Assembly (NCBI GenBank): GCA_905206805.1
Contig: CAJLIR010000006.1
Span: forward strand, 2,999-66,998
DNA from: an uncultured Bacillales bacterium
GTDB taxonomy: Bacteria > Bacillota_I > Bacilli_A > RF39 > UBA660
Reading direction: 5' to 3'
DNA: 64,000 nt
Below the pieces are notes generated by a model, which saw only the letters and a program-made list of their open reading frames with translations, was not told where the DNA came from and ran no database searches. A program made the position numbers and the translations under genes. Positions 26,933-49,027 of the stretch are shown one piece after another (within the stretch, counting starts at the first letter, position 1; every line of letters begins with the position of its first letter).

Positions 26933-27355
26933 ATGAAAATAACTTTAAAAAAAATAATTTTTATGATATTAATATTTATAATTGTTGGAGTTTTGTTTTT
27001 TATATTAAAAAATAATATTAATAATCAAGAAAAAAATCTTAGAAATCTTCTAAAACAAATGGGTAGTGATTTTTATGAAAATTATTATTATGATGCTTTA
27101 GATGATGATGTTTCTATAAGACAAACTTTCTTAAAAAAGTATGAAACAATTGGAATTAAAATTAACTTAGATAATTTATCTAGATATAGTGCTTTAAATA
27201 ATAGGGATAATTTAGAAAAATTTGTTAATAACAAGACTAATCAGGAGTGTGATAAGATAGATACAAAAGCTATTATATATCCGAAGTATCCGTTTGAAAA
27301 AAAATCGTATGAAATAGATGTAGAGTTATCTTGTGGTTTTGATGAAAGTAAATAA
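26933..27355 (+). CDS. small secreted / membrane-anchored protein with two conserved Cys; diverged paralogue of 46333-46779
   Basis: N-terminal TM; about 50% identity to the 46333 product (SDFYENYYYD...KYETIGIKINLDNLSRY...TKAIIYP...). Confidence 0.55.
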   Translation: MKITLKKIIFMILIFIIVGVLFFILKNNINNQEKNLRNLLKQMGSDFYENYYYDALDDDVSIRQTFLKKYETIGIKINLDNLSRYSALNNRDNLEKFVNNKTNQECDKIDTKAIIYPKYPFEKKSYEIDVELSCGFDESK

Positions 27356-27367
27356 TTACTTTCTTTT

Positions 27368-27397
27368 TTTGAAAATTTTTAAAAAGTGTGGTATAAT
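27368..27397 (+). promoter_or_regulatory. putative promoter of the 3101-aa gene (TTGAAA -35, extended -10 TGgTATAAT)
   Basis: TTGAAA at 27368-27373, 18-nt spacer, TGGTATAAT at 27389-27397; AGGAAGG RBS before the ATG at 27428. Confidence 0.4.
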
Positions 27398-27427
27398 TAA
27401 AAATAGTAGGAAGGTATTGATAGTTGT

Positions 27428-30400
27428 ATGTATAAGAATAAAAATTTGATTATATTAATATTTAGTTTAGTTTTGTTTTTTGTATTTTATCCTGATGTTT
27501 TTGCTCAGGAGATATCAGAATTTTCTTGTACAGATGATTATCAAGAATTTATTGCGCCAACTTATGGAAATTATAAAATAGAATTATGGGGAGCTGCTGG
27601 TGGTAGAAACTTAGTTGATAACGCATATACTAATACAACATATGCAAAACTAGGTGGTAAAGGTGCTTATACTAGTGGTGTTATTACTCTTAAGAAAAAC
27701 GAAAAAATTTATGTTTATGTTGGATGCAAAGGGCGAGATGCTAAGAAAGCTACTATTGTCGCTGGCGGATATAATGGTGGAGGTAGAGGAGATCACGATC
27801 ACTCTGATGATGAAGCTTCTGGTGCTGGTGGAGGTGCTACAGATGTTCGTTTAGTAAAAGGTGATAATTGGGATGATTTTACTTCTTTAAAAAGCCGTAT
27901 TATGATTGCTGGTGGAGGCGGAGGAGCTTCTTACGAACTTCGTGGTGGAAATGCTGGTACGCTTTCTGGTGAGGACACTCTTTATAGTAAAGGTGGAACT
28001 CAAACCACTGGATATAAATTTGGAATTGGACAAGATGGAGTTTATGTAAATTCTAATGTCGATGTTGCCGGAGGTGGAGGCGGATATTTTGGGGGATTTG
28101 CCAAATCTTCAGGAGCTTCTAATTCTTATAAAACAGCTGGTGCTGGTGGTAGTTCGTTTGTGTCAGGGTGTACAGGTTGTACTGCTATTTCTGGAAATTC
28201 TACTGAAGATAATATATATTTCTTAAATAGTAATATTCATTATAGTAATTATAAATTTAGTGATATTGTTATGAAATCTGGTAGTGAAGAGATGCCAAAC
28301 TATTTAGACAATAGTGTTATTACTGGTAATAGCTCTGATGGACATGCGAGAATAACTCTTATAAATGGGATTTCTCATTTTACTAAATTAGATATTGAAA
28401 ATGCTACTATTGTTCAAAAATTAGAAGATTCTGTTTTTGAATATGATGTAATTATTCCAAATGATAATTTTTCGACAACTATTAATTATGAAACATCAGT
28501 AAAAAATGTAACTGTATTTGGAGCTGGAAAGGTTACATTAAAAGATGGAAAAGTACATATGGTAAGTATTATAGACAATGATACTGGTGATATTACAATA
28601 TATAATATTACGCCATCTTTAAAGAAATCTACTTTAAAATCGATTTCATTTAGTGAAAAACAATTTGATTTTAATCCTGATCAATATGAATATACAATAG
28701 AAGTACCTTATAATATTTTTGACTTAACGCCTATTATAGAGACTTATGATAATACTACTTATACTATAGAAAAATCTACTTTAAAAATTGGAAATAATTT
28801 AGTAAAAATAAATGTAAGTACTCAAGGTATGGAAAATTCTACTTATAAATTTTATGTAAAAAGACAAGAAAGCAATAATCTTAAAACTATATATGAATCA
28901 ACAGGCTCTTCCGAAGAATACGTTGTACCTTATTCTGGTTATTATGAAATAGAGTTATGGGGAGCTGCTGGTGGCCGAGGTAGAACTAATTATGTATTAG
29001 ATAAATATGGTGGTAAAGGTGGGTATACAAAAGGTACTATCTATCTTGAAAAGGGTACTATTCTTTATTTTTATGTAGGTGGTAAAGGCCTTAATGCTGC
29101 AAGTGTATCTAGATGTGTAGGTGGACTTGGAGGATATAATGGTGGAGCTCAAGGTGGAATTGATGGAAACTGTGATTCTAATCCTGAACCTGGTGCCGGA
29201 GGTGGTGGAGCCACTGATGTTCGTTTGGTAGGAGGAGATTGGAATAATATTGATTCACTAAAAAGCCGTATAATGGTTGCCGGAGGCGGAGGAGGAGGAA
29301 CATATTCTTATGTTGGTTCTTCAGCCGGTGGACTTAATGGGTATGCTGGAGGAGCGGCTAAAACTTTCGCAACTCAAATATCTGGTAATGCATTTGGATA
29401 TGCAACTATGGTTTCTAATTCAGATTATACTGGAGGACCAGGAGGTTCTGGAAGTGGATATTATGGTGGTATAACTAATAAAAGTGATTCTGCATCTGGT
29501 GGAGGAGGTTCCAGTTTTATTTCTGGACATGCTGGAAGTATAGCTATAAATGAAGATGGAATTCCAAAGACAAATGTATATACTGTACTTGATAATTCTA
29601 TTCATTATTCAAATTATAAATTTGAAGATACAGTTATGATAGATGGAAATGGATATGAATGGACAACTAAGAAGGAAACTCAAATTGGAATGCCTACATT
29701 TGATGGAAAATCAAAAATGAATGGTAATGAAAATTCTGGTTATGCCAAAATAACTTTTTTAGGACGAGGAAAAGAAGATACGTTAGATTTCATTGCTTTG
29801 AGTAGTGGTACATTAGATCCAGTATTTGATCCTGATACAAAAGAATATAATGTTACTCTTGATTCATCTGTTTCACAGTTGACTGTTGACGCTACATCTT
29901 CTAATCCGGATATAGCGATATATGGTTTAGGAGAATATGATATTCCGTCAGGAAAAACTGATATAAATATTCAGCTTACTTCTGTAAATGGAAATGTTAA
30001 TTTATATACAATTCATGTAACAAGAGACGCAAATAGTAACAAGTATTTATCTAATGTACTTATCAATGGTATAAAATATGATTTATTTTCACCTAGTAAA
30101 TTCGAATATAATATTGAACTTCCTACAAGTATTAATTATATTGATTTAGAAGTAATTAAAGGTTCTACAAGTCAAGAGGTAACTGGAACAGGTAAGTTTG
30201 AATTTAGTAATAATTCTATTTCTAAAACAATTTTAGTTGTATCTGAAGATAAAAATGAAAGTCAACATTACATATTTAATTTTACAAGAAAAAAGAGTAC
30301 TAAATTAAAAAGTATTGATCTTGGTAATGAACTAATAAAAAATTTTGATTTTGGTTCTGATATATATGAATACAATATAGAAATTCCTAATAATATATTA

Positions 30401-33400
30401 GAGTTGAATATTAATACCATTGCTTATTATAATGGTGCATCTATTGAGATAATAGGCGGCCACTATTTGGAAAAAAGTGGTGTTATAACTGTAACTTCTA
30501 AATTAGAAGGTCTAGAAGATTCTGTTTATAAAATTAATTATACAAAAACTTCTGATATTGATGTTCCCGAAAATTTATATGAGTATACTGGTGATGTTCA
30601 AACATTTACGGCATTATATGGTGGAAAATATAAAATAGAATTATGGGGAGCTGCTGGTGGACGTGGAAGAACTAATTATGTATTAGATAAATATGGTGGT
30701 TCTGGAGGTTACACAAGTGGTGAAATAGTACTTAATCAAAACCAAGTTTTGTATGTTTATGTTGGAGGTAAAGGAAAAGATTCAGCAAGTGTATCTAGAT
30801 GTGTAGGTGGACTTGGAGGATATAATGGTGGAGCCAAAGGTGGTATTGATGGAAACTGTGATTCTAATCCTGAACCTGGAGCTGGTGGCGGAGGAGCTAC
30901 AGACATTCGTTTAGTTGGTGGTATTTGGAATGATACTGATTCATTAAAAAGCCGTATTATGGTTGCTGGAGGTGGTGGAGGAGCCACTTATAATGTTACC
31001 GGTTCATCCGCTGGTGGATTAGAAGGATATATTGGAAATAAAGGAAAATCGGCTGCAACTCAAATATCTGGTAATGCATTTGGATATGGCACTATTGTTT
31101 CTGATTCGGATTATACTGTTGGCCCAGGAGGAGCTGGAAGTGGATATTATGCTGGTACAACTAGTAGAAGTGATGGTTCATCTGGTGGAGGTGGATCAAG
31201 CTTTATTTCTGGACATGCCGGAAGTATAGCCATAAATGAAGATGGTAATCCTAAAACCACACTTTTTACAACTTTAAGTGATTCATATCATTATTCTAAT
31301 TTTGTTTTTACTAATACTGTTATGATAGATGGAAAAGGGTATAATTGGACTACTAAAAAAGAAGGTGTAACTTCTATGCCAGATCCTTATGGGGGATATT
31401 ATAAAGATGGTACTGGAAATTCTAAAGATGGCTATGCTAGAATAACTTTATTATCTACTTTAAGTAGTAATAATTTCTTAGATTCTCTTACAATTAACGA
31501 TGGTGATATTTCGATTGCATTTGAGCCTTGGATTACAGAATATGATTTAAATCTTGAAGAAGATGATAAATATATAAAAATTTCTGCTAAAGCGAAAGAT
31601 GAAGATGCTGTTATTAGCGGTTTAGGTACTGTCACTGTGCCACCTGGCAATAGTAAACAAACAATCTCTGTTACAGCAAGTGATGGAAGTGTTAGAAATT
31701 ATGTATTAAATATAAATCGTAAGGGTTCGAGTGACCCATATCCTTTAGACATACAAATAAATAAAATGAATCCTTATTTATGTCAAAAAGATTCTCATTA
31801 TTGTAATTATACTTTTAATAAAGATACAACTAATTATGAAATTACTTTACCTTTTATGCTTAATGAAGTTGAGGTAAAACCTATTTTAAAATCAGAATAT
31901 CAAAGTGTTATTTATAGAAAAGTAGAAGCTGATAATACAACTGAACTAGAAAATGGTACTTTTAGTTTAACAAATGATATAAATACTTATCAAGTAGAAG
32001 TTACTAGTGAGGATGGAACTCAAAATATTGTTTATACATATGTATTTAAAAGAGATATGACGGGTAATAATAATTTAACTAGTTTAAAAATTGTTAATCC
32101 AGATATTGAAATTGATTTTGATCCATATAAATATGAGTATTATGGAACAATTACTTCAGCTTATACAAATTATGATATTGAAGCAATTCCTGAAAGTAGT
32201 GATGCAAAAGTTTCTATTACAGGAAATACTAATTTGGTTTTAGGAATTAATGATGCTATGGTAATTGTTACTGCTTCTAATGGTGATACTAAAACTTATT
32301 TACTTCATATTTATAAAGAGCAAGATAGTAATGTGTTTTTGAAAGAATTAGAAGTTGTTGGAAATGGAAGTTCTTTAGAGTTATCACCACAATTTAATAA
32401 ATTGTTAAATGATTATGTTATAAGTGCTCCTTCAAATGTGAAATCTGTTACTATAAATGCAACTCCCGAAAGTGGCAGTGCATCTGTTACTGGATTAGGT
32501 AATAAAGTTTTAAAATCTGGTATAAATAATTTTAGTGTTCAAGTAACTAGTGAAAGTGGAGATGTTAATGTTTATAATTTGACAATTAATAAAGATAAGA
32601 ATTTTAATCCACTACTTTCTAATATTGAAATAGATGGATATACTTTTGAAGAAGAATTTAGTCCTACAAATTATGAATATTATTTAAAAATACCAAAGGA
32701 TGTTACTTCGCTTGATTTAAATGTTACTCCACAGGAATCTACTACAAATTATAGAATTAGTGGGAATCGTAATTTAGTAAAAGTAAATAATACTATTACA
32801 ATTCATAGTGTTGCTGAGAATCAAACCTCAAAAGATTACTATATATATGTATCAAAACCTCTTTCATCAAATAATTATTTGAAAGATATTAAGTTAAGTA
32901 CAGGCACCTTAAATGAAGAATTTAATAAAGAAACACTTGAATATACTATGGATATTTCAAGTGATGTTGAGAGTATAGATGTTACCGGAATTTTGGATGA
33001 TTCAAGTTCAATTATAAAGGGTAATGGTACATATTATTTATCCACAGGTGTAAATGTAATTAAACTTGTTGTTCAAAGTGAAACAGAAGAGGAACGTATA
33101 TATACTATAACAATAAATAGGGATAAAAATGATGATGCTGGTTTAAAAAAGGTAAATAATAGCGCAGGTAGTAGTGTTATACTAAATGATACAGAAGAAT
33201 ACCAATATTTGATTAATGTTCAATATGAGGTAAATCAAATAGAGATAAATGGTATTCCAAATGTATCAACATCAACAGTAAATGGTAATGGTACGTATTC
33301 ATTAAAGGTTGGAAATAATGATATTGTTTTAAGCGTTCAAAGTGAGAAAGGAACAGTAAAGACATATATTGTTAGGGTCGTAAGAGATTTATCCTTAAAT

Positions 33401-36400
33401 GATGATTTGAAATATTTATTTGTTAAAGAAGGCGCTCTTTCTCCTAGATTTCAAGATACAACTATTTTATATGATGTTAAAATTCCTTCTAATGTTGATA
33501 AATTAACTATTGATGCTATTACGGAAGATGAAAATGCTACGTATGAAATTATTGGTAATCAAGATTTTGTTGAGGAAACTGAAAAGGAAGTAATAGTTAG
33601 AGTTACTGCTCAACGTGGAAATACTAAAGATTATAAATTGCGAGTTGTTAAACAAAAAGTAATAACTGAAGAATTTTATTTAGATTCTTTATCTATAGAT
33701 TCTGGTATCTTAAATCCTACTTTTGATCCTAAAACTCAACTATATTATGCGTCTGTTGATTATAATGTTAATGAGATTACTTTAACTGGTGGCACTAATG
33801 ATCCAAACGTTAGAGTATATGGAAATGGTACATATTCTTTAAATGTTGGGAAAAATCCACTTGCTATTTCTATAATAAATAGTGAGGGTCTTCAAAAAGA
33901 TTATCAAGTTATCGTGACAAGAAAGGAATCTGATGATGCTACATTATCTTCACTTGTAGTAAAGGGTAATAAATTAAACCCTAAGTTTAATAAGAATATT
34001 GATAATTATACTTTAACTACAAGCAAATCTTTTCTAGAGTTTACTACAATTAAAACAACAGAAAATGATGCCACATATGAAGTAATTGGTAATAAAAATT
34101 TTACAACTGGTATAAATACTGTAACTATAAGAGTTACTGCTCCTGATAAAACAAAAACTCATGATTATGTACTTTCTGTAAATAAAAGTGCAGATACAAA
34201 CAATAATTTAGCATCTTTGAGTGTTCTTGGTAATACTTTAATACCTAATTTTCATAAAGGTGTAACAACATATACCATCAATGTTTCAAATGAAATAAAC
34301 AATGTTGTTATTGAAGCTACACCAGAAGAGAAAACATCTACGGTAACAGGAACAGGGTCACAACAAATTAATGTTGGTACTAATAAAATTGATGTTGTTG
34401 TAACAAGTGAAGCAGGAACTCAAAAAAAATATACAATTATTGTTACAAAAGATGAATCAGATAACAACTTTTTGGCAAATCTTTATACAAGTGAAGGAAT
34501 TTTAACTCCAAATTTTGATAAAGAAATATTAGAATATAATATAAATGTTCCTAATGAAGTTGATGAGATAGAAATAGATGGTAAATTAGAAGATTTATCT
34601 GCATCTACAAATGACTTTAAATTATATTCTTTAAATGAAGGCGATAATTCAATTTATATTACTGTAACAAGTCAGGCTGGAAGTGTACGTATATATAAAA
34701 TAAATGTCAATAGAGAAGAAAAAGTAAGTTCTTATTTAAAGAATTTAGAAATAGAAAATTATGATTTAGATCCCGAGTTTGATAAAGAAAATTTTGAATA
34801 TTTTATTAATGTTAATAATGAAACAACAAAATTAGATATTTCTTTAGAAACAGAAGATGAAAATGCTAATGTTGAAGTATCTGGAAATGAAAATTTTTCT
34901 GTAGGAATGAATATAGTTACAATTACAGTAACAACAACGGATTCGACAACTTCAACTTATGAAATTTATGTTAATAGGAATTTATCTACTAACAATTATT
35001 TAAGTAGTATTGAATTATCTAGTGGTACATTGAACCCAGAATTTAATCCAAATACAATGAATTATGTGGTAGATGTTGAAAATAATATTTCAAGCATAGA
35101 TATTAATGCAGTAGTGCAAGATTCACAATCAGTTGTAACAGTTGGTAATGGAACTCATACTTTAATTACAGGAGAAAATGAAATTGTTATTAAAGTTAAA
35201 TCGGCAATAGGAGTATATAGAGTATATACACTAAAAGTAAATAGAAAAAAATCTGATAATAATTATTTATCAAGTTTAATTGTTACTTCTAATAATAAAA
35301 ATATACCAATAAATTTTGAAAAAACTAATAATAATTATTCAATAAATGTTGATAGTTCAGTTGATTATATCAATATAAAGGCGTTTTCTGAGGAAAAAAG
35401 TTCTACTGTAAGTAATATAGGTACTAAAAAAATAAATTTAGGAATCAATAACTTTGAAATATTAGTTACTAGTGAGTCTGGTCTTGTAAATGTATATAAG
35501 TTAACTGTAGAAAGAAAAGCTAGTAGTAATAATAATGTTATTTTAATAAAACCAAGTGTTGGATTATTAAATGTTTCATTTGATCCAAAAATAAAAGAAT
35601 ATACATTAAATGTAGATAAAGATGATAATTTACTTTCCTTTGATGTTAACTTAGAAGATAGTAAAGCAATTGTTACTGGTTACGAAGAAAAAATTATTAC
35701 TGATGGAACAAGTGTAAGAACAATAACAGTAACAGCAGAAGATGGCAGTACAAATATATATACTTTTAATGTAATAAAAGAAAATCAAAGTGAAGCTAGA
35801 TTATCTAGTTTAAAAATAAAAGGTTATGAAATAAATTTTGATAAAGATAAATTTATTTATAATATAGAAGTAGCTGGTAAAAAAAGTAAATTACTAGAAA
35901 GTGAAATAGAAGCAATACCATTAGATAATGAAGCAAATGTAAATTTGATGGGTGATATAGAATTATTACGAGATATAAATAATAAATATATTATTGAAGT
36001 TATTGCTAAAGATGGTTATACGACACAAGAATATATATTAAATATAACTAGAGGTCCTATATTAGAAAATATTACTGTAAATAAAAATTTGTTTAAAATA
36101 GTAGAAGGTGAAACAGATACTATTTTAGTAACTACTGATCCTTTAGATTTTAAAACTGATATAAAATATGAAGTAGAAGATGATAGTATTGTAAGTGTTG
36201 ATGATGCTGGATTAATAACAGGTTTAAGTGTAGGGAAAACTACAATTAAAGTAATAGCAGTAGAAGATGAAAATATTACAAAAACATTAAATATAGAAGT
36301 AATACCAAAAGAGATAAAGAGTTCATATAGTATTAATAGAGATGAATATAAATATATAATTGGTATGGATGCTGGAATAACTGTTGATGATTTTTTAACA

Positions 36401-36733: not shown

Positions 36734-36750
36734 ATTTGTTAAATAGAAAA

Positions 36751-36778
36751 GCACTAAAATTTTATTAGTGTTTTTTTT
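36751..36778 (+). terminator. rho-independent terminator after the 3101-aa gene
   Basis: GCACTAA-aatttta-TTAGTG(T) hairpin followed by T8. Confidence 0.6.
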
Positions 36779-36800
36779 GTCGATTTTTGTAATATTTCGG

Positions 36801-36829
36801 TTTACAAATAATATACATTTTGTTATAAT
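36801..36829 (+). promoter_or_regulatory. putative promoter of the 1851-aa gene operon (TTTACA, 17 nt, TATAAT with TGT extension)
   Basis: TTTACA at 36801-36806, 17-nt spacer, TATAAT at 36824-36829 preceded by TGT; GGGAGAG RBS before 36871. Confidence 0.4.
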
Positions 36830-36870
36830 ATAATTATAATAAGTAAAGTATAGTTAGAAGTTGGGAGAGC

Positions 36871-39800
36871 TTGAAAATGAAATTAGTAAAAAAAAATAAT
36901 TTTTTTCTGTTATTTATTATAATGTTATTTTCTTTTGGATTTAATGTTATATCTGTAAATGCAGAAGGTGAACATCAATTTTCATTAAAGGTTTATGATT
37001 GGAATGCTTTTGATAATGATTGGGAAGGTTCTGGTACGGGAGAAGAAATTTCTAATAATGGTACTATAGAACCTGGTAAAGTATATAAATTATCTATTTA
37101 TTATATTCCAGGAACAATTACAGAAGTAGGTATGCAAATGGGGATTAAGTATAATAATCTTTTAATTGAACCGATGTATGCAGATGGTGAATTGTATACA
37201 GAAACTGATATGTCAACAACATACCAAGGTGGTATATGGCCTGCATCAGGTACAACACCATCCGCAAAAAAGAAAACAAATTGGCAAGTATTGTCAAATG
37301 ATGCAAGTGATGAAAGTATGTTTACATTTATGGCTACGGATACAACAACTTCAAATGCTCTTGAAACAGAAGGAGAAATTGCAAGTGTGTATTTTAAAGT
37401 AAAAGATACAGTGACATCAGGAACAAATATAATTTTTGAATATGATGATGAATATACAGCACTTAATAACGATAGACCTAAAGTAACATCAGGAATAAAT
37501 TTAACAGTTCAAACAGCTTTAAGTTCTAATTCGGCACTTCATACATTAAGTGTCACAAATAGCGAAACAACTTATAATTTAACCCCAACTTTTACAGCAG
37601 ATGATAATACAATTAAAGAATATAGTACAGTTGTACCTTCATCAGTAACAAGTGTTGATTTAAGTGCAACAGCAACAGATTCTAATGCCAGCGTGTTAAG
37701 TGGCGGATTGGGTATAAAAGAATTAAATATTGGAAATAATGATTTTAATATAGTTGTAACCGCTGGGGATGGTTCAATTACTACTTATAAGGTGTCAGTT
37801 TATAGATTAAATGATGATGCTACATTAAAATCATTAGATTTAACAAATAATGTTAATATTGGAGAATTTAATAGTGCAACTACTGAATATGAGGCAAGCG
37901 TACCATACGCAACTAAAAATACAGTTGTAAGTGCAACAACAACAGATCAAAATGCAAGTATTAAATCTGGAACTGGAAGTTTTGAATTTACTAATTGTGG
38001 TACTACTCCTAATACTAAGGAAATAATAGTAAATGCTGAAAACTGTAAGGAAGAATATGCAAGTGTTCCAAATAATGCTTGTACTACAAAAACATATACA
38101 GTAACAGTAAATAGAGAAAATCCTTCTAATAATAATTATTTAAGTAATTTAAAAGTAAATGGACAAACAGTAACTGATTTTAATAAAGAAAAATTAGAAT
38201 ATACATTGGATGATGTAAAAGGTGATGTTTCAAGTATAGAAGTTTCAGCTACAGCCGAAGATACAAAAGCAAGTGTAGTAGGAACTGAAAATAAATCACT
38301 AAGTATTGGTGATAATAGTATAGAAGTAGTTGTAACAGCAGAAGATGGATCAACTAAAATTTATACAATAAAAGTTAAGAAGTTATCAAATGATATAGCA
38401 CTTAAATCATTAACTGTAACAAGTAACCCTATGGGAACATTAACTCCAAGTTTTGCAAGTACAACTTATGCTTATACATATAATTATGATGCAACAGTAA
38501 CAAGTTTAAATGTTACAGCAACAACAAATAATACAAATGCAAAAGTAGGAATTATTGATAGTGATTCAAGTGATATTATGACAAGTACAATCGGAAGTGC
38601 AGCAAAAACATTTAATTCATCTACAAAAAATGTAAAAGTAACGGTAACAGCTGAAGATGGTACAACAAAAGATTATACAATTGTTTTATCAAGAGATAAA
38701 TCAACAGATGCAACATTAGATAGTTTAACAGTAAGTGAAGGAACATTAACTCCAACATTTAATAAAAATACATTAAATTATACAGTAAATGTTGATAATG
38801 ATGTTACCAGCATTGATGTAAATGCAACATCAACAGATTCAAATGCTACAGTAACTGGTACAGGAACTAAACAATTAAATACAGGAAATAATTTAATTAA
38901 TATTGTAGTTAAAAGTGAATCTGGAACCGAAAACACTTATACAATAAATGTAATAAGAGCAAAGAGTTCTAATAATTACTTAAGTGATTTAAAAGTAAAT
39001 GGGCAAACAGTAACTGATTTTAATAAAGAAAAATTAGAATATACATTGGATGATGTAAAAGGTGATGTTTCAAGTATAGAAGTTTCAGCTACAGCCGAAG
39101 ATACAAAAGCAAGTGTAGTAGGAACTGAAAATAAATCACTAAGTATTGGTGATAATAGTATAGAAGTAGTTGTAACAGCAGAAGATGGATCAACTAAAAT
39201 TTATACAATAAAAGTTAAGAAGTTATCAAATGATATAGCACTTAAATCATTAACTGTAACAAGTAACCCTATGGGAACATTAACTCCAAGTTTTGCAAGT
39301 ACAACTTATGCTTATACATATAATTATGATGCAACAGTAACAAGTTTAAATGTTACAGCAACAACAAATAATACAAATGCAAAAGTAGGAATTATTGATA
39401 GTGATTCAAGTGATATTATGACAAGTACAATCGGAAGTGCAGCAAAAACATTTAATTCATCTACAAAAAATGTAAAAGTAACGGTAACAGCTGAAGATGG
39501 TACAACAAAAGACTATACAATCGTTTTATCAAGAGCTTTATCAAATAATAGTTATTTAAAAGATATAAGTATTGATGGAACTAATATTGATGGATTTAAT
39601 AAAGAAAATTTTGAATATAATATAAAAGTTTCAAGAGAAACAGATAGTATTAATATATCTGCAATTTTAGATGATGAAAAGGCAACTTTAACTACAGATT
39701 TATCTAATAAATTTAGTTTAAATCTAGGAACTAATAAAATAAATATTGTAGTAACGGCAGAAAATGGTGATACAAGCACTTATGTATTAAATATTGAAAG

Positions 39801-42426
39801 AGAAAAGAATAATGATGCAACATTAGATAGTCTAACAGTTAGTAAAGGAACATTAACTCCAGCATTTAACAAAAACACATTAAATTATACAGTAAATGTA
39901 GAAAATGATGTTACAAGTATAGAGGTTTCAGCTACAGCAACAGATTCAAATGCTACAGTAACTGGTACAGGAACTAAACAATTAAATACAGGAGATAATA
40001 CAGTTACAATAAAAGTAACAAGTGAATCTGGATCAGAAAATACTTACACAATAAATGTAATAAGAGCAAAGAGTTCTAATAATTACTTAAGCGATTTAAA
40101 AGTAAATGGGCAAACAGTAATTGATTTTAATAAAGAAAAATTAGAATATACATTGGATGATGTAAAAGGTGATGTTTCAAGTATAGAAGTTTCAGCTACA
40201 GCCGAAGATACAAAAGCAAGTGTAGTAGGAACTGAAAATAAATCACTAAGTATTGGTGATAATAGTATAGAAGTAGTTGTAACAGCAGAAGATGGATCAA
40301 CTAAAATTTATACAATAAAAGTTAAGAAGTTATCAAATGATATAGCACTTAAATCATTAACTGTAACAAGTAACCCTATGGGAACATTAACTCCAAGTTT
40401 TGCAAGTACAACTTATGCTTATACATATAATTATGATGCAACAGTAACAAGTTTAAATGTTACAGCAACAACAAATAATACAAATGCAAAAGTAGGAATT
40501 ATTGATAGTGATTCAAGTGATATTATGACAAGTACAATCGGAAGTGCAGCAAAAACATTTAATTCATCTACAAAAAATGTAAAAGTAACGGTAACAGCTG
40601 AAGATGGTACAACAAAAGACTATACAATCGTTTTATCAAGAGCTTTATCAAATAATAGTTATTTAAAAGATATAAGTATTGATGGAACTAATATTGATGG
40701 ATTTAATAAAGAAAATTTTGAATATAATATAAAAGTTTCAAGAGAAACAGATAGTATTAATATATCTGCAATTTTAGATGATGAAAAGGCAACTTTAACT
40801 ACAGATTTATCTAATAAATTTAGTTTAAATCTAGGAACTAATAAAATAAATATTGTAGTAACGGCAGAAAATGGTGATACAAGCACTTATGTATTAAATA
40901 TTGAAAGAGAAAAGAATAATGATGCAACATTAGATAGTCTAACAGTTAGTAAAGGAACATTAACTCCAGCATTTAACAAAAACACATTAAATTATACAGT
41001 AAATGTAGAAAATGATGTTACAAGTATAGAGGTTTCAGCTACAGCAACAGATTCAAATGCTACAGTAACTGGTACAGGAACTAAACAATTAAATACAGGA
41101 GATAATACAGTTACAATAAAAGTAACAAGTGAATCTGGATCAGAAAATACTTACACAATAAATGTAATAAGAGCAAAGAGTTCTAATAATAATTTAACAG
41201 ATATTAAAGTAGATGGTAATAGTATTGAAAACTTTAGTTCAAATACTTTAAAATATAATTTACCAAAGGTAAGCTATAATAGAACAAGTATAAATGTAGA
41301 AGCTATATTATCAGATTCAAAAGCTAGCGTAACCGGGGTTGGTAATGTTTCATTAAATACTGGTGATAACAAAATAGAAATAATTGTAACTGCCGAAGAT
41401 GGAACCGCTAAAACTTATGAATTAAATATTGAAAGAAAAAAAAATAATAATGCTAAATTACAAAGTTTAAGTATTGGCAATTATACATTAACTCCAGCAT
41501 TTAATAAAGATACTTTAGAATATACTGTAACAGTAGGTGAAGATGTAAATATTTTAAATCAAGATGATGTAATTGCAATCCCAGAAGATAATAATGCAAC
41601 AGTTGTAAAACAAGGTAATTTAGAGTTATCTACAACATCTGATAATTATTATAGAGTAACAGTAACAGCTGAAAATGGTGTTGATAAAAATGTTTATGCT
41701 ATTAAAGTAATTCGTCCAAAATCAAGTGATGCTACTTTAAAATCATTAGAAATAATTGGTGGAAAATTGACTCCAACATTTAATAAAGATACTTTAGAAT
41801 ATAATGTTACAATGGGTAAAGATGTTACTAAATTTAATAAAGATAATATAAAAGTATCAATAAATAATGGTAATGCTAAAATTAGTTATAACAATGAAAT
41901 AATAATTAATAGTGATACATTTACTAAGTATATAATTACAGTAACAGCTGAAAATGGTTCTAAAAAGGAATATATCTTAAATGTAAAAGTTGATACAGAA
42001 TTGGATAAAATCACATCTAGCAGTCATACAATTAATGATGAATATATTAAAACAGTAAGATTATATGAAACAGGTAGAGAATTAAAGGATGAGTTGGATA
42101 ATGATAATGCTTATCTTGAAATTTGGACATCTGATGAATCAAGAAAAGTTGAAGATGATGAAAAATTATCAACTGGAATGATTGTAAAATTAGTTATTAA
42201 TGGTGTTTTAAAAGATAGAAAAATCATTGTTATTAGGGGAGATACATCTGGTGATGGTGAAATAGATTTGTTAGATGCTGTTAAAATATTAAATAATGCA
42301 TTGCAAAAAGCAATGTTAGATGGAGCTTATAAAGAAGCAGCATTTGTAAATAATGATGATGAAATTGACTTATTGGATGCAGTTATGATTTTAAATCATT
42401 GTTTACAAAAACAACCTTTATATTAG
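36871..42426 (+). CDS. giant secreted surface protein (1851 aa): signal peptide, N-terminal cohesin-like domain, about 16 cadherin-like beta-sandwich domains, C-terminal dockerin-like module
   Basis: N-terminal region (aa about 35-215) shows the cohesin-like pattern (KVYKLSIYYIPG..EVGMQMGIKYNNLLIEP ... GEIASVYFKVKDTVTSGTNIIFEYDD). Repeated cadherin-like domains. C-terminal GDTSGDGEIDLLDAVKILN...NNDDEIDLLDAVMILNHCL is a dockerin-like duplicated segment. Confidence 0.85.
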   Translation: MKMKLVKKNNFFLLFIIMLFSFGFNVISVNAEGEHQFSLKVYDWNAFDNDWEGSGTGEEISNNGTIEPGKVYKLSIYYIPGTITEVGMQMGIKYNNLLIEPMYADGELYTETDMSTTYQGGIWPASGTTPSAKKKTNWQVLSNDASDESMFTFMATDTTTSNALETEGEIASVYFKVKDTVTSGTNIIFEYDDEYTALNNDRPKVTSGINLTVQTALSSNSALHTLSVTNSETTYNLTPTFTADDNTIKEYSTVVPSSVTSVDLSATATDSNASVLSGGLGIKELNIGNNDFNIVVTAGDGSITTYKVSVYRLNDDATLKSLDLTNNVNIGEFNSATTEYEASVPYATKNTVVSATTTDQNASIKSGTGSFEFTNCGTTPNTKEIIVNAENCKEEYASVPNNACTTKTYTVTVNRENPSNNNYLSNLKVNGQTVTDFNKEKLEYTLDDVKGDVSSIEVSATAEDTKASVVGTENKSLSIGDNSIEVVVTAEDGSTKIYTIKVKKLSNDIALKSLTVTSNPMGTLTPSFASTTYAYTYNYDATVTSLNVTATTNNTNAKVGIIDSDSSDIMTSTIGSAAKTFNSSTKNVKVTVTAEDGTTKDYTIVLSRDKSTDATLDSLTVSEGTLTPTFNKNTLNYTVNVDNDVTSIDVNATSTDSNATVTGTGTKQLNTGNNLINIVVKSESGTENTYTINVIRAKSSNNYLSDLKVNGQTVTDFNKEKLEYTLDDVKGDVSSIEVSATAEDTKASVVGTENKSLSIGDNSIEVVVTAEDGSTKIYTIKVKKLSNDIALKSLTVTSNPMGTLTPSFASTTYAYTYNYDATVTSLNVTATTNNTNAKVGIIDSDSSDIMTSTIGSAAKTFNSSTKNVKVTVTAEDGTTKDYTIVLSRALSNNSYLKDISIDGTNIDGFNKENFEYNIKVSRETDSINISAILDDEKATLTTDLSNKFSLNLGTNKINIVVTAENGDTSTYVLNIEREKNNDATLDSLTVSKGTLTPAFNKNTLNYTVNVENDVTSIEVSATATDSNATVTGTGTKQLNTGDNTVTIKVTSESGSENTYTINVIRAKSSNNYLSDLKVNGQTVIDFNKEKLEYTLDDVKGDVSSIEVSATAEDTKASVVGTENKSLSIGDNSIEVVVTAEDGSTKIYTIKVKKLSNDIALKSLTVTSNPMGTLTPSFASTTYAYTYNYDATVTSLNVTATTNNTNAKVGIIDSDSSDIMTSTIGSAAKTFNSSTKNVKVTVTAEDGTTKDYTIVLSRALSNNSYLKDISIDGTNIDGFNKENFEYNIKVSRETDSINISAILDDEKATLTTDLSNKFSLNLGTNKINIVVTAENGDTSTYVLNIEREKNNDATLDSLTVSKGTLTPAFNKNTLNYTVNVENDVTSIEVSATATDSNATVTGTGTKQLNTGDNTVTIKVTSESGSENTYTINVIRAKSSNNNLTDIKVDGNSIENFSSNTLKYNLPKVSYNRTSINVEAILSDSKASVTGVGNVSLNTGDNKIEIIVTAEDGTAKTYELNIERKKNNNAKLQSLSIGNYTLTPAFNKDTLEYTVTVGEDVNILNQDDVIAIPEDNNATVVKQGNLELSTTSDNYYRVTVTAENGVDKNVYAIKVIRPKSSDATLKSLEIIGGKLTPTFNKDTLEYNVTMGKDVTKFNKDNIKVSINNGNAKISYNNEIIINSDTFTKYIITVTAENGSKKEYILNVKVDTELDKITSSSHTINDEYIKTVRLYETGRELKDELDNDNAYLEIWTSDESRKVEDDEKLSTGMIVKLVINGVLKDRKIIVIRGDTSGDGEIDLLDAVKILNNALQKAMLDGAYKEAAFVNNDDEIDLLDAVMILNHCLQKQPLY
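38135..38975. repeat. first, partial copy of the intragenic tandem repeat (A+B units, about 840 bp)
   Basis: The 560-bp A unit (aataattatttaagtaatttaaaagtaaatggacaaacag...ttatcaagag) recurs almost identically at 38975 and 40082. Confidence 0.8.
38975..41188. repeat. two near-identical 1107-bp tandem repeat units inside the 1851-aa gene (each encodes about 4 cadherin-like domains)
   Basis: Identical 228-bp stretches, shown by identical reverse-strand ORFs at 39552-39779 and 40659-40886 (offset 1107 bp); only a few SNPs between units. Confidence 0.85.
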
Positions 42427-42435
42427 GAGGCAATT

Positions 42436-44550
42436 ATGAAAAAATTTAAAAATTTAAACTTGTTTATAGTATCTGGCTTTATATTTCTATTTTCTATCTT
42501 TTTTATAACTCCAGTATATGCTTTAGGAAGTGCTACAGTAGGTTTTAGTGGCAATTCTACTGTTAGTGTAGGTAGTAATATAACAGTACAATTATATGTA
42601 TCAAATGTTAATGATGCAAATGGTGGTGTTGCAAGTTTTGAAGGAAATCTTTCTTTTGATTCTGATTATTTGGAATATGTATCAGGATCTGGTGCAACAA
42701 CTCCTTATTTGTTTCAAATAAATACAGCTGCAAATTATAAAATTGCAGCTCTTGATACATCTTTAAGTAATGGCATTAAAAGTAGTAGTTCGACTAACGT
42801 TTTTACCTTTGTATTTAAAGCAAAAAAAGAAGGCTCAACAACTGTTAGTATTACAAATTTAAAATTGACTAATAGCAGTGAGAGAATGACTGGTAATGTT
42901 AGCCCAAAAACAATTACGATAAATACTCCTGCACCAGTTACAAAATCAAGTGATGCAACACTTAAAAGTTTATCAGCAACAGGCTATACATTAAGTCCTG
43001 AATTTAATAAAGATATTACATCTTATAAGATTAAAGTTCCAGCAACTGCTACAACAGTTAGTTTACAAGGAAGTGCTAATCATAGTAAGGCAACAGTATC
43101 AGGACTTGGTAATATAAATTTAACTGGTGATACAACTGTTGCAACAATAAAAGTAACAGCCGAAGATGGAACGGTAAAAAATTATACAGTAACAATTGAA
43201 AAAGAAAAAACTACTCCTGTTACAAAGAGTAATGATGCAACACTTAAAAGTTTGGATGTTAGTGGATTTACTTTAAATCCAACTTTTAAAAGTAATGTAA
43301 ATACTTATTCTATTAGGGTTAATAATAATATAACTGGTTTAAAAGTTACTGCTATTGCTAATAGTGATAAAGCTAGTGTTTCTATATCTGGAAATAGTGA
43401 TTGGGAAGAAGGAAACAATATAATTACAATAAAAGTAACAGCAGAAGATGGAACAGTTAATAATTATATTGTTAATGTTAATAGAGCTTCACTAAATACA
43501 ACAAAAGCTATAAATAAATCGAGTGACAATTATTTAAAGAGTTTAATCATTCAATCATCACACGAAATGAAACCTATTTTTGATAAGAATTTAACTAATT
43601 ATAATATTACAGTACCTTATGAGGTTAGCAAACTTGATTTAACTGCTACTAGTAATGACTCTAAAGCAAAAGTTGAAATAATAGGTAATAGTAGTTTTAG
43701 TGTTGAAAAAGTAAATCTTGTTGAAGTTAAAGTAACTGCTGAGGATGGAAGTATTCGTATTTATTCTTTAAACGTTACTCGTAGTACAACTTCTAGTAAA
43801 ACTGATTTAAAAGATTTAGTAATAGATAATGTTAATTTAAGTCCAAAATTTGATTCAAATATTTTAGATTATACTGCTAATGTTGATGCTAAAACTGATA
43901 AATTAAATATTAGATATACAACTAGTAATAGTGATAGTAAAGTCGAAATAATTGGTAATGATAATTTAAAAGAAGGAAATAATACTGTTTTAATAAAAGT
44001 AACTGATAAGGAAGGCTTTACTAAGTATTATTCGATAAATGTTGTAAAAGAAAAATCAGGTAGTACTATTTTAGGTCTTAAACCACTTCATTTTGTACTT
44101 CTATTCTTTATAATACTTCTTTTAATTGCGATAATTATTATTTTATTAATAAAAAGAAAAAAAGATGAGAACAAAAAATTGGAAGAAAAGAAGTTAATGC
44201 AAACGCAACCAATAATTGAAGTAAAACCAGAATTTAATTTTAATTCAAAGAATTCTTCTGATGATGATGTTGTACACGGAAATATGAGTCAAAATAGTGG
44301 TACTATAGGGACAAATCCAGAAAAGAAACAAATTTTTGATGCTAGTTATGAAAATAAAATTCCTTATGACCCTTATGATGAAACAGTTACTAAACAAGAA
44401 TTAATTGATGCAATTCACGAAGCATCAGAAAAAAAGGATGTGTCTAAACTTCAAATGTTGTTGAGGCAAGAAGAGTTAAATAAGATGAAAAAAGAATTAA
44501 AGGAAAAAGAGGATTTAGAACAAAAAGAGGAAGATGAAAAATGGTGGTAA
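42436..44550 (+). CDS. membrane-anchored cohesin protein (704 aa): signal peptide, cohesin domain, 4 cadherin-like domains, TM helix, charged cytoplasmic tail of about 130 aa
   Basis: N-terminal SATVGFSGNSTVSVGSNITVQLYVSNVNDANGGVASFEGNLSFDSDYLEYVSGSG...VFTFVFKAKKEGSTTVSITNLKLTN matches the cohesin fold pattern. TM LHFVLLFFIILLLIAIIIILLI followed by a KRKK stop-transfer. RBS TAGGAGG 10 nt after the upstream gene's stop. Confidence 0.8.
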   Translation: MKKFKNLNLFIVSGFIFLFSIFFITPVYALGSATVGFSGNSTVSVGSNITVQLYVSNVNDANGGVASFEGNLSFDSDYLEYVSGSGATTPYLFQINTAANYKIAALDTSLSNGIKSSSSTNVFTFVFKAKKEGSTTVSITNLKLTNSSERMTGNVSPKTITINTPAPVTKSSDATLKSLSATGYTLSPEFNKDITSYKIKVPATATTVSLQGSANHSKATVSGLGNINLTGDTTVATIKVTAEDGTVKNYTVTIEKEKTTPVTKSNDATLKSLDVSGFTLNPTFKSNVNTYSIRVNNNITGLKVTAIANSDKASVSISGNSDWEEGNNIITIKVTAEDGTVNNYIVNVNRASLNTTKAINKSSDNYLKSLIIQSSHEMKPIFDKNLTNYNITVPYEVSKLDLTATSNDSKAKVEIIGNSSFSVEKVNLVEVKVTAEDGSIRIYSLNVTRSTTSSKTDLKDLVIDNVNLSPKFDSNILDYTANVDAKTDKLNIRYTTSNSDSKVEIIGNDNLKEGNNTVLIKVTDKEGFTKYYSINVVKEKSGSTILGLKPLHFVLLFFIILLLIAIIIILLIKRKKDENKKLEEKKLMQTQPIIEVKPEFNFNSKNSSDDDVVHGNMSQNSGTIGTNPEKKQIFDASYENKIPYDPYDETVTKQELIDAIHEASEKKDVSKLQMLLRQEELNKMKKELKEKEDLEQKEEDEKWW

Positions 44551-46241
44551 AAAATATATTAAATAAGAATATTAAATTATTTCTATTTTCTATTCTTTCT
44601 TTTTGTTTTCTTTTATTTCCATTTATAGCTAAAGCTGATGGAAGTGTGTCATCTGGCTTTAGTGGAAATGATAGTGTTTATGTCGGAAATACTATTGATG
44701 TAACTCTTTATGTAAATGAAAGTGGTAGTGCTTCAGGTATTATGGCAATACAAGGAAGTTTGTCGTATGATAGTAGTAAATTAACGCTTTTAAATTCAGT
44801 TTCATTAGCGCCATATCAAATTCAAATAAATGGTAATAGTATTGCCGGGATGGATACTAGTGGTTCCAGAACAATCAGAGGTTATTCAAATATAATGAAA
44901 TTTACATTTAAAGCAAATTCACTAGGAAGTGCTACAGTAAGTTTTAATGGAGCTAAATATATTGATGGCAACAATTCTTATATTAACGGTGGTGGATGTA
45001 GTAGAACAATAAATATTGTAAATCCTCCTAGTTCAAATAATAATTTAAGTAGTTTGACAGTTAGTAGTGGAAATATCAATTTTGATAAAAATAATACTAA
45101 CTATAATATAAGTGTTGATTCAAATGTAACAAGTATAAATATTGGTGCAACTGCAGAAGATGGGGGAGCTAGTGTATCAGGAACTGGAACTAAAAATTTA
45201 GGATACGGTAATAATTCTTTTGGTATTACTGTAACAGCTCCAAGTGGTGCTACAAAAACATATACAGTAAATGTTAATCGTAAAGATGATAGAAGTAGTA
45301 ATAATAAACTTTCTAGTTTAAGTGTAAATGATGGTGAAATTAATCCTAGTTTTAATGCAGATAATGAGTCTTATGATGTATCAGTTCCATTTAGTGTAGA
45401 TAATTTAAGAATAAATGCTAAAGCACAAGATGGTAAATCAAGAATTGATATTTCTGATACTTCTTTAATTGCTGAGGAAACAAAGGATATATATATAACG
45501 GTAACAGCAGAAAATGGAGCTAAAAAAATCTATACAATTCATGCTACCCGTGGTAAAGATCCGAATAAAGTTCTTTCAACGAATAATTTTTTAGAAAGTT
45601 TAACTGTAAGTTCAGGTGTACTTAGTCCAATTTTTAATAAAGAACAGGATAAATATATCATTTATCTTCCTTATGAAGTTGATTCAATTGATATAACAGG
45701 TATTGTAGAGGATAAAAGGTATGCAACTATAAAAAAAGATGGACCAGAAAAATTAAGTGTTGGAAATAATACTTATACTTTATCTGTAACATCAGAAGAT
45801 AACTCAGTTAGAACATATACAATAATTGTATCAAGAGGAATAAGTATGACTGAGGAAACATTGAGTTCTAATATTTATTTAAAAAGTATTAAATTAAAAA
45901 AAGGTTCATTAAAAGAATCATTTGACAAAGAAATATTTGATTATACTTATACTGGTAGTGAAGTAGAAGCAATTCCTGAAGATGAAAATAGTACGGTGAC
46001 GGTTATAAATCGTAATAATAAAATAATTATTATGGTAAAATCTCCTTCAGGAAGTATTGGTATTTATACATTAACTCCATATAAGTCAAATTTAATTAAT
46101 ATTATTATTTATATAATTTTATCTTTAACAAATATAGTAGGTGGAGTAGGATTTTATATAATATATAAAAAAAATAAAAAGAACAATTCTAAAGTAAAAA
46201 AACAAGATAAAGAGAGAATAACAGTAGATAATAAAAACTAG
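44541..46241 (+). CDS. membrane-anchored cohesin protein (566 aa): signal peptide, cohesin domain, about 4 cadherin-like domains, C-terminal TM anchor
   Basis: SVSSGFSGNDSVYVGNTIDVTLYVNESGSASGIMAIQGSLSYDSSKLTLLNSVS...IMKFTFKANSLGSATVSFNG matches the cohesin pattern. C-terminal TM IIIYIILSLTNIVGGVGFYIIY followed by KKNKKNN. Overlaps the upstream gene by 10 nt (operon). Confidence 0.8.
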   Translation: MVVKNILNKNIKLFLFSILSFCFLLFPFIAKADGSVSSGFSGNDSVYVGNTIDVTLYVNESGSASGIMAIQGSLSYDSSKLTLLNSVSLAPYQIQINGNSIAGMDTSGSRTIRGYSNIMKFTFKANSLGSATVSFNGAKYIDGNNSYINGGGCSRTINIVNPPSSNNNLSSLTVSSGNINFDKNNTNYNISVDSNVTSINIGATAEDGGASVSGTGTKNLGYGNNSFGITVTAPSGATKTYTVNVNRKDDRSSNNKLSSLSVNDGEINPSFNADNESYDVSVPFSVDNLRINAKAQDGKSRIDISDTSLIAEETKDIYITVTAENGAKKIYTIHATRGKDPNKVLSTNNFLESLTVSSGVLSPIFNKEQDKYIIYLPYEVDSIDITGIVEDKRYATIKKDGPEKLSVGNNTYTLSVTSEDNSVRTYTIIVSRGISMTEETLSSNIYLKSIKLKKGSLKESFDKEIFDYTYTGSEVEAIPEDENSTVTVINRNNKIIIMVKSPSGSIGIYTLTPYKSNLINIIIYIILSLTNIVGGVGFYIIYKKNKKNNSKVKKQDKERITVDNKN

Positions 46242-46332
46242 TTAAAGTAGATTATTCTACTTTTTTCTTTAATCAATAGATTGATATATATTTAAATGTT
46301 ATGATACAATGTAAGTGTGAGGTAAATAAAGT

Positions 46333-46779: not shown

Positions 46780-46845
46780 TTATAATTTTTGACAAATATA
46801 TTCATATATATACAAATTTTTCATAATTTTTAATAGAGGTGGATT

Positions 46846-48929: not shown

Positions 48930-49027
48930 TTTTATATTAATGTATCAGATGAAATAAAAAATTCTATAAATTTACAAATATATTCATATATATACAATTT
49001 TTTCATAATTTTTAATAGAGGTGGATT

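Follow-up and report, generated by a model that had tools for sequence, protein, structure and literature searches.

The 64-kb window analyzed here, the whole stretch of 64 000 nucleotides from contig CAJLIR010000006.1 of an uncultured Bacillales bacterium, has a base composition of ~25% G + C and contains a set of genes in which cohesin and dockerin modules are combined with giant repeat proteins. Cohesin–dockerin pairs are a textbook device for the construction of enzyme complexes; to our knowledge, their role outside cellulosomes and amylosomes is largely unknown, though the modules are widespread. Four open reading frames (ORFs), referred to as P1 to P4, run in the same direction on the plus strand, as do all of the cassette features located below. 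They span positions 27428–46241 and encode proteins of 3101, 1851, 704, and 566 amino acids (aa), each with a signal-peptide-like segment that can be read at its N-terminus. These ORFs lie exactly where a preliminary description of this DNA, made from the sequence without database searches, had placed four consecutive genes for two giants and two anchors. The conserved unit is wider than these four genes, extending over 26933–46779 to include two paralogous genes for small membrane proteins of a single family, up140 and dn148, which flank P1–P4.

The first of the giants, the A-type giant P1 (27428–36733), was delineated from its ORF, from Pfam, and from custom hidden Markov models (HMMs). It consists of a signal peptide, a glycine-rich domain (GRD), two cadherin-like domains, a second GRD, three cadherin-like domains, a third GRD, 17 consecutive cadherin-like domains, a Big_2 domain, an X module, and a dockerin. 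The three GRDs, located at 27506–28378, 28880–29782, and 30563–31477 by Pfam and by an alignment of the three copies, belong to the ALK/LTK GRD family (PF12810). They match ALK_LTK_GRD in three stretches with a total of 474.5 bits, against a gathering score of 24.5, and are spaced over the distal 1350 residues of the protein. The 17 consecutive cadherin-like domains (PF12733), identified by the custom HMM in addition to the five between the GRDs, form a stalk at 31478–36058, which is followed by the Big_2 domain at 36065–36262 (Pfam E 2.8e-8). A length of 3100–3101 aa is retained in >10 independent assemblies, so the ORF is a genuine one without interruption, and the clusters to which the window's own proteins belong have 26–71 members in NCBI, ENA, and Logan assemblies.

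The B-type giant P2 (36871–42426), delineated in the same way, combines a signal peptide, an N-terminal cohesin (CohB, 36964–37536), 16 cadherin-like domains, an X module, and a dockerin. The more likely start codon is the ATG at position 36877 rather than that at 36871, since a ribosome-binding site (GGGAG) lies at 36861 and the homologue P0015 begins with MKLVKK. Several lines of evidence bear on the identity of CohB. The Pfam Cohesin match reaches 21.4 bits (E 3e-4), which is below the gathering score of 24.1, with four of eight orthologues matching the Cohesin family, and a homologue with 68% identity, P0016, carries PF00963. Residues 32–222 of P2 gave weak matches in the Protein Data Bank (PDB), every one of them a cohesin, and a profile built from eight orthologues gave nine matches in the PDB, again all cohesins (best E 0.0016). 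An AlphaFold2 model of the domain, with a predicted local distance difference test (pLDDT) score of 69.9 and a predicted template modelling (pTM) score of 0.74, was compared with the PDB using Foldseek; the top 45 matches were all cohesins, the best being 6kgd_A (E 1.8e-7, TMt 0.69). The Foldseek matches include PDB entry 2jh2, from the cohesin–dockerin toxin complexes of C. perfringens. As judged from the model and these comparisons, P2 begins with a predicted cohesin β-sandwich (jelly-roll) fold and so, with a cohesin at one end and a dockerin at the other, is laid out like an adaptor scaffoldin. Within its stalk, tandem units of 1107 nt, each of which encodes four domains, are 98–99% identical in DNA sequence (38130–41136), which indicates a recent expansion. 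Tandem Repeats Finder reported no repeats in P2, where the period of 1107 nt lies beyond the limit of that program.

The C-termini of both giants carry an X module that immediately precedes a dockerin. In P1, the X module (36263–36532) is small and β-grasp-like and is apparently packed against the dockerin (DocA, 36542–36709), in which the Ca-binding loops are DINGDGKINISD and ELTKDGKINISD. The X module of P2 (42007–42225) aligns with that of P1 and is retained by every B-type orthologue; it is followed by DocB (42238–42396), with the loops DTSGDGEIDLLD and FVNNDDEIDLLD. Homology of these X modules to those of CttA or to type II or type III X modules was not established by our comparisons, and the X module is not demonstrably of the CttA type. 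DocA matches Dockerin_1 (PF00404) at 29.4 bits, against a cut-off of 22.9. A model of the X–DocA dyad (pLDDT 94.6, pTM 0.87) superposes on the type I dockerins of C. thermocellum at 0.9 Å, with a template modelling score of 0.92 and 38% identity, and thus has the predicted three-helix fold of a dockerin. For DocB, the Dockerin_1 score is 19.4 bits within the whole of P2 and 23.5 bits, just over the same cut-off, for the isolated C-terminus, and seven of eight orthologues match the family. A profile of P2-type C-termini found dockerins as all of its best matches in the PDB (4uyq_B, E 0.002), and DocB is directly comparable with DocA (29% identity, E 6e-9).

A type I dockerin was taken to have two F-hand loops, with oxygen donors at positions 1, 3, 5, 9, and 12 and a helix after each loop. 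At these positions, loop 1 of DocA reads D-N-D-N-D, which is canonical, and loop 2 reads E-T-D-N-D; the corresponding residues of DocB are D-S-D-D-D and F-N-D-D-D. The second loops of both dockerins are therefore degenerate in part. Position 1 of DocB loop 2 is non-acidic in P2 and in all seven orthologues, where it is Y, F, L, or Q. At positions 10 and 11, the two halves of the P1 dockerin have I-S and I-S and those of the P2 dockerin have L-L and L-L. By analogy with type I dockerins, such matching halves at the recognition positions point to a dual mode of binding and to a separate specificity for each dockerin.

The third and fourth genes encode the membrane anchors. P3, or anchor 1 (42436–44550), was defined from its ORF, Pfam, the custom HMM, and reading of the sequence, and it comprises a signal peptide, a cohesin (CohA, 42523–42945), four cadherin-like domains, a transmembrane (TM) helix, and a conserved, charged cytoplasmic tail. 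The helix was read at residues 551–572 (44086–44151) and the tail of 132 aa (44152–44547) contains the conserved motif IPYDPYD..VTK.E.IDAIHEA. Charged residues make up 41% of the last 129 residues, and the tail, which matched no known family, is conserved in the related loci L001 and L004–L009 described below. P4, or anchor 2 (44541–46241; assigned from its ORF, its likeness to P3, and the custom HMM), has the same order of modules, with a cohesin (CohA′, 44637–45035), a TM helix read at residues 518–542 (46092–46166), and a short basic tail. CohA scores 37.5 bits in Pfam, against a cut-off of 24.1. CohA′ gave no match in a scan of the whole protein and 28.4 bits as an isolated N-terminal domain; it shares 39% identity with CohA (E 2e-19), and the L001 orthologue of P4 carries PF00963. 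Single-sequence searches of the PDB with the anchor cohesins returned only chance matches (ABCB1 and a collagen adhesin). No LPXTG motif was found on reading P3 and P4, both of which end in a TM helix and a basic or charged tail, and both are type I membrane proteins that present one cohesin each on a spacer of four cadherin-like domains.

This form of anchor is common among its relatives. A profile of P3-type cohesins gave 189 matches among 1.84 billion representative proteins, 87 of them at E ≤ 1e-10. A separate homologue search gave only short proteins or fragments (≤250 or ≤286 aa, depending on the query) and missed the clusters of the window's own proteins, so that it says nothing on full-length architectures and its match counts are not family sizes. 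Among the best 150 of the 189 matches were 44 long single-cohesin proteins, in which the dominant arrangement was a signal peptide, a cohesin, two to six cadherin-like domains (mode four), and a TM helix. A P3-type tail was present in 27 of these 44.

With an HMM built iteratively from the repeats, a total of 46 cadherin-like domains was counted in the cassette (22 in P1, 16 in P2, and four each in P3 and P4), with Pfam scores for PF12733 of 357, 491, 126, and 97 bits in P1 to P4, respectively (gathering score 24.2). The three cohesins and two dockerins described above are all of those in the window, and with the custom HMMs, the rest of the window yielded no additional domain of the cohesin, dockerin, cadherin-like, or glycine-rich types. 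No glycoside hydrolase (GH), carbohydrate esterase (CE), polysaccharide lyase (PL), or carbohydrate-binding module (CBM) was found by Pfam in P1–P4 or in the neighbouring proteins that were scanned over the 64 kb, and the same scan gave no match to S-layer homology (SLH) domains. No NCBIfam model matches any of the six cassette proteins. Much of this had been anticipated. The preliminary description listed about 40 cadherin-like domains in the giants, where the custom HMM finds 38, together with one Big_2 domain, three glycine-rich domains, and an absence of GHs, CBMs, and SLH domains, all of which the Pfam results bear out. It also placed the two anchors in the membrane, one of them with a charged tail of ~130 aa, and the helices and the tail of P3 are found as it described them. 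Its assignment of cohesin-like N-termini to the 704- and 566-aa proteins agrees with the Pfam scores for P3 and for the P4 domain alone. The same is true of the dockerins that it placed at the ends of the giants, through Pfam scores over the cut-off (for P2 as an isolated C-terminus), the X–DocA model, and the PDB profile matches. Generic EF-hand repeats, the alternative that it had raised for these segments, do not account for the superposition of DocA on type I dockerins or for the recovery of dockerins by the DocB profile. Neither of the two outcomes that it had named as refuting its interpretation was thus observed. The description was incomplete in other respects, as the N-terminal cohesin of P2, the X modules, and the up140 genes went unmentioned.

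The up140 gene (26933–27355) encodes a protein with an N-terminal TM helix and an ectodomain of ~110 aa with two invariant Cys residues, and dn148 (46333–46779) was recognized as its paralogue by sequence comparison. Orthologues of up140 are found just upstream of genes for A-type or GRD–cadherin-like giants in L001, L013–16, L040, L048, and L050, and one is present in L007, a variant locus that lacks an A-type giant; among L001–L010, the gene was seen only in L001 and L007. The family has no relative in Pfam, NCBIfam, or the PDB. The up140 gene is a conserved accessory gene.

Sequences resembling transcription signals are located in the gaps between the genes. A promoter-like site precedes P1 (27369–27397; TTGAAA-17-TATAAT with a TG extension, 11/12) and another precedes P2 (36801–36829; TTTACA-17-TATAAT with a TG extension, 11/12), and these are the two best matches to a sigma-70-like site in 20 kb. 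Such sites are consensus matches only, and their total count equals the chance expectation. After the stop codon of P1, an AT-rich hairpin with a run of T residues (36749–36780) was identified by eye as a possible terminator; it is absent from the output of the scanner used, which needs ≥3 GC pairs. The gap between P2 and P3 is 9 nt, P3 and P4 overlap by 10 nt, and a strong ribosome-binding site (AGGAGG) lies before P3. Because of the promoter-like sites in both gaps, together with this spacing and overlap, P1 seems to be transcribed by itself, and P2, P3, and P4 seem to be coupled in one unit.

Relatives of the locus were reached through the P3 cohesin on three metagenome contigs (L001–L003) and on contigs from metagenome-assembled genomes (MAGs; L004–L010), the titles of which refer to uncultured Bacilli (Hadza gut), Tenericutes UMGS484, uncultured Bacillales, Bacilli from the caecum of water deer, and one member of the Oscillospiraceae. 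Their layouts were established by mapping the custom HMMs on six-frame ORFs. The same gene order recurs in ~10 lineages from gut metagenomes or MAGs that carry the label Bacilli or Tenericutes: in some cases up140, then an A-type giant (cadherin-like domains, Big_2, and X–DocA), a B-type giant (CohB, 11–20 cadherin-like domains, and X–DocB), anchor 1 (cohesin, four cadherin-like domains, TM helix, and conserved tail), and anchor 2 (cohesin, four cadherin-like domains, and TM helix). The giants and anchors were found in this order in L001, L004, L005, L006, and L008, which answers the suggestion in the preliminary description that homologous loci be sought in related taxa; L009 contains just the C-terminus of the B-type giant and both anchors. 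A B-type giant and anchor 1 occur together in seven of seven loci. The cassette in L001 lies between infB and rbfA, a context unlike that of the window, and the unit is therefore the cassette and not the neighbourhood. Conservation of synteny in this way supports the view that the genes form a functional unit.

A separate metagenome scan with the GRDs identified up140, a giant with GRDs, cadherin-like domains, and X–DocA, and a giant with CohB in L013, L015, and L048, at 91%, 76%, and 45% identity, respectively. The L048 giant has 3853 aa, with four GRDs and 26 cadherin-like domains, and matches PF12810 in four stretches with 527 bits; its GRDs and cadherin-like domains were confirmed by Pfam, and its dockerin was seen by the custom HMM only. 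Longer ORFs in which many GRDs and cadherin-like domains are combined were also observed, including one of >6,985 aa with 16 GRDs and 25 cadherin-like domains that is open at both ends (L023), one of >6,135 aa with 13 GRDs (L016), and one of >6,161 aa with eight GRDs and 41 cadherin-like domains (L026). In the L007 variant (3293–4096 and 12097–14199), there is a cohesin-only protein of 268 aa along with mini-adaptors, namely a cohesin–Big_2–dockerin protein of 306 aa and a Big_2–dockerin protein of 276 aa. The Oscillospiraceae contig L010, with 60% G + C, has a minimal version of the cassette with a different cargo and encodes a protein with SH3_3, cadherin-like, and X–dockerin modules beside a cohesin/cadherin-like/TM protein (7859–11596), and its dockerin matches Dockerin_1 at 41.9 bits. 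This pair indicates that display by membrane cohesins reaches beyond the low-GC Bacilli lineages.

We consider that the cassette encodes a self-contained, non-enzymatic cohesin–dockerin assembly on the surface of an uncultured gut Firmicute with a low GC content, from a Bacilli-class MAG lineage, built as a serial fibre of anchor, P2, and P1, and we give this reading a probability of about 0.6. In such an assembly, the dockerin of P2 would plug into the cohesin of P3, of P4, or of both, and the dockerin of P1 would plug into the cohesin of P2. A cell wall is expected, since VanY and S11 carboxypeptidases are encoded in the window, and the spacer of four cadherin-like domains (~16–18 nm) could take the anchor cohesin through it or up to it. 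The chain of anchor, P2, and P1 would then be a Ca-dependent fibre with non-covalent joints and a length of roughly 200 nm or more. These lengths are based on a β-sandwich domain being ~4–4.5 nm long. The outer third of the fibre would show the three GRDs as multivalent heads for a ligand from the host, from dietary particles, or from other bacteria, and the up140 proteins and the conserved tail of P3 would belong to the same system. On the basis of the predicted modules, a surface fibre involved in adhesion would be the most economical functional reading, with cohesin–dockerin binding expected to occur within the cassette.

Partner assignment within this serial fibre draws on three features: the adaptor layout of P2, the co-occurrence of B-type giant and anchor 1 in 7/7 loci, and the correlation between the distance matrices of DocA and CohB. 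These two modules evolve faster than any of the others, with a mean pairwise identity of 0.33 and 0.25, respectively, and no other matrices are as closely correlated as theirs (Spearman 0.74). A correlation is also seen between DocB (0.64) and the anchor cohesins (0.61 and 0.42). With six taxa, this mirror-tree comparison would weakly favour the serial arrangement. Several observations weigh against the reading as a whole. The partners are assigned by co-occurrence and by a mirror-tree of six taxa that gives 15 non-independent pairs. CohB falls below the Pfam cut-off (21.4 vs 24.1 bits) and the confidence of its model is moderate (pLDDT 69.9). Among the dockerins, loop 2 of DocB is without an acidic residue at position 1 and in loop 2 of DocA, positions 1 and 3 are occupied by E and T, respectively. 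The A-type giant of L001 has a CohB-like head in place of the GRDs, so the cargo varies. Neither a single-sequence phmmer search with the GRDs nor a profile of the three copies reached an ALK or LTK chain in the PDB, where the solved GRD has polyglycine-II helices on a TNF-like core, and the role of the bacterial GRDs as binding heads is a prediction. The number of repeats in P2 may be an artefact of assembly from short reads, because the 1107-nt units are 98–99% identical. Finally, the view is limited to the 64-kb window, and dockerin-bearing enzymes could be encoded elsewhere in the genome.

The same modules could be arranged differently. P1 and P2 might each be held on their own anchor, P3 or P4, to give a brush of parallel fibres, with the cohesin of P2 recruiting something else, such as a further molecule of P1 or P2 or a dockerin protein from a different locus. 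The presence of two anchors and of two dockerins with different recognition residues (I-S vs L-L) would fit such a display, as would the P4-type anchors in all four of the loci where an A-type giant can be seen together with a separate anchor 2 (L001 and L004–L006). It is harder to reconcile with the distance matrices, in which DocA anticorrelates with the anchor-2 cohesin (–0.50) and follows CohB (0.74), or with L008, where an A-type giant is present although both anchors bear P3-like cohesins; two anchors of the P3-like kind are also found in L009, on a contig that ends before any A-type gene. Since P2 has an N-terminal cohesin, a serial chain from anchor to adaptor to cargo is as likely as the simple parallel display pictured in the preliminary description, or likelier, and we regard the parallel arrangement as rather unlikely.

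Two further possibilities change the purpose of the assembly. One is that the cassette provides a scaffold whose cargo, be it enzymes or other proteins, comes from different loci, similar to a cellulosome or amylosome, with the cadherin-like proteins as carbohydrate-binding scaffolds; the Pfam entry for PF12733 reportedly suggests that these domains bind carbohydrate. The genome is seen here through 64 kb only, and the dockerin–cohesin pairs of L007 and L010 do carry other cargo (Big_2-only proteins and the SH3_3-containing protein). Each protein has a single cohesin, with no multi-cohesin scaffoldin among them, the numbers of cohesins and dockerins in the cassette are nearly balanced, no GH, CE, PL, or CBM is found in the window or in the inspected flanks of related loci, and the cassette moves as a unit among genomic contexts, such as infB/rbfA in L001, all of which make the scaffold improbable. 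The other possibility is an intercellular glue or matrix, in which dockerins bind the cohesins of neighbouring cells, or P2 polymerizes head to tail, to form bridges between cells or the mesh of a biofilm. P2 does have both a cohesin and a dockerin, and so do both giants of L001, where extension of the chain or polymerization is conceivable. The DocB and CohB distance matrices are uncorrelated (–0.08), and the three conserved glycine-rich heads of P1 argue for an external ligand, which leaves the glue with slightly poorer prospects than the scaffold.

The closest functional analogue of the proposed fibre would be the CttA–ScaE adhesion system. In Ruminococcus flavefaciens, the non-catalytic X–dockerin protein CttA is held by the surface-anchored cohesin ScaE and mediates adhesion (PMC4266597). 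Common to that system and to the window are a non-catalytic protein with an X module just before its dockerin and a cell anchor with a single cohesin. CttA has two CBMs and is part of a cellulosome, whereas the cargo here consists of 22–38 cadherin-like domains and glycine-rich domains, and the window, unlike the CttA–ScaE system, has TM proteins as anchors and an adaptor in which a cohesin and a dockerin are combined. ScaE itself is fixed to the cell wall by sortase. A second comparison is with the amylosome of Ruminococcus bromii, in which GH13 amylases and CBMs are accompanied by dockerin-bearing, non-catalytic Sas proteins (PMC4611034, PMC9112005). It too is a non-cellulosomal system of a human gut Firmicute, with proteins that carry both cohesin and dockerin and with non-enzymatic binding proteins; the cassette differs in having no enzymes or CBMs and in the architecture of its anchoring and stalks.

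The best structural matches of the cassette modules are the anchoring and adaptor scaffoldin proteins of classical cellulosomes. The proposed hierarchy, in which the dockerin of the cargo binds the cohesin of the adaptor and the dockerin of the adaptor binds the cohesin of the anchor, resembles that of ScaB/ScaC in Acetivibrio cellulolyticus and OlpA/OlpC in C. thermocellum. Unlike those systems, the cassette has no enzymes and no SLH domains, one cohesin per protein, cadherin-like stalks, TM anchors, and one conserved tail. By the defining features tested, the cassette is not a cellulosome, as no dockerin-bearing carbohydrate-active enzyme is present as cargo in the 64 kb, there is one cohesin per protein, and SLH and sortase signals are absent. 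Non-cellulosomal cohesin and dockerin modules are reported to have been catalogued in genome surveys (Peer et al. 2009, FEMS Microbiol Lett). Like those modules and the C. perfringens complexes, the cassette places cohesins and dockerins outside cellulose degraders, where they often occur singly in surface proteins; the surveyed cases are mostly isolated modules or glycosidase complexes, unlike the cassette. Ebh-, SasG-, Rib-, and Big-type proteins are well-known giant adhesins of Gram-positive bacteria, in which tandem β-sandwich stalks project heads and near-identical repeats occur, as they do in P2. Such adhesins are single polypeptides fixed to the wall by sortase, whereas the fibre proposed here would be made of separate proteins with non-covalent joints.

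In full-text searches of the literature, no description of this architecture was found, and we know of no other conserved cassette of four to six genes that combines giant repeat proteins with dedicated TM anchors. The statement in the preliminary description that the architecture was unrecognized among described systems thus stands for the arrangement; the principle has precedents, since cohesin–dockerin adhesion and the display of non-enzymatic proteins are found in CttA–ScaE and in the Sas proteins of the amylosome. The interpretation given in that description is supported as a whole by the analysis, with cohesin–dockerin binding and the role as an adhesin being the predicted parts.

The cassette is compact, conserved, and self-contained. 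Two giant, non-enzymatic repeat proteins from adjacent genes are the sole plausible clients of its cohesins, so that assembly of an adhesin could be tested with six pairs of modules. Bacterial members of the ALK/LTK GRD family would be placed at the outer end of a stalk on the cell, and the distribution of the cassette points to a colonization structure in uncultured low-GC lineages of human and ruminant gut metagenomes. The TM-anchored cohesins, the two apparently orthogonal X–dockerins, and the new, small X module may also be useful as parts for protein engineering. A bolder and more doubtful proposal is that, in this clade of uncultured Bacilli from the gut, the main surface appendage is neither a pilus nor a sortase-linked adhesin but a hierarchically jointed fibre of ≥0.2 µm, made of separate giants joined by cohesin–dockerin plugs, with ALK/LTK-like GRD tips that bind a ligand from the host or the diet, and with the P3 tail and up140 coupling the fibre to the cell interior for the control of assembly or for mechanosensing. 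Were this so, no earlier cohesin–dockerin system would be dedicated to adhesion without a link to polysaccharide degradation, and bacterial ALK-type glycine-rich domains would for the first time be placed in a functional context.

Around the cassette, the window contains chromosomal genes that include rnj (RNase J), ftsY, ylxM, ffh, feoB, PrsW, and those for D-Ala-D-Ala carboxypeptidases, and no tRNA or Rfam features were found in it. An origin from a mobile element or phage was considered and ruled out, given the chromosomal genes rnj, ftsY, ylxM, ffh, and feoB and the lack of tRNA or Rfam features. Two BclA-like collagen-repeat proteins (Collagen plus BclA_C) are encoded at 50289–51416 and 54416–55525, with unknown ORFs between them, and a CotD-like ORF lies at 9501–9854; these genes suggest a spore-forming host. 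A role of the cassette at the spore surface was rejected because it is found in unrelated contexts elsewhere, as in L001 between infB and rbfA, and the neighbourhood is not conserved.

Other features of the window are separate from the cassette or adjoin it. A direct repeat of 300 nt with 97% identity, at 46771–47070 and 48953–49252, is a duplicated 5′ end of a Peptidase_S11 (DacF-like) gene, with a truncated copy at 46846–47268 and the full gene at 49028–50182. It flanks an HTH_36 gene (47344–48069) and an ORF of 258 aa, a segment that looks like an insertion with target duplication. A Fic/DOC family protein is encoded at 62392–63225, downstream of an ABC/FtsX fusion transporter. Towards the other end of the window, three genes at 4923–7929 are inserted between ylxM (4619–4909) and ffh (7974–9281). 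The first encodes a HerA-type ATPase (PADLOC HerA, 386 bits; Pfam DUF87) and the others an N-formylglutamate-amidohydrolase-family protein (PF05013) and a 158-aa protein of no known type, and the trio is a possible HerA-partnered module for defence, in which the effector would be unusual.

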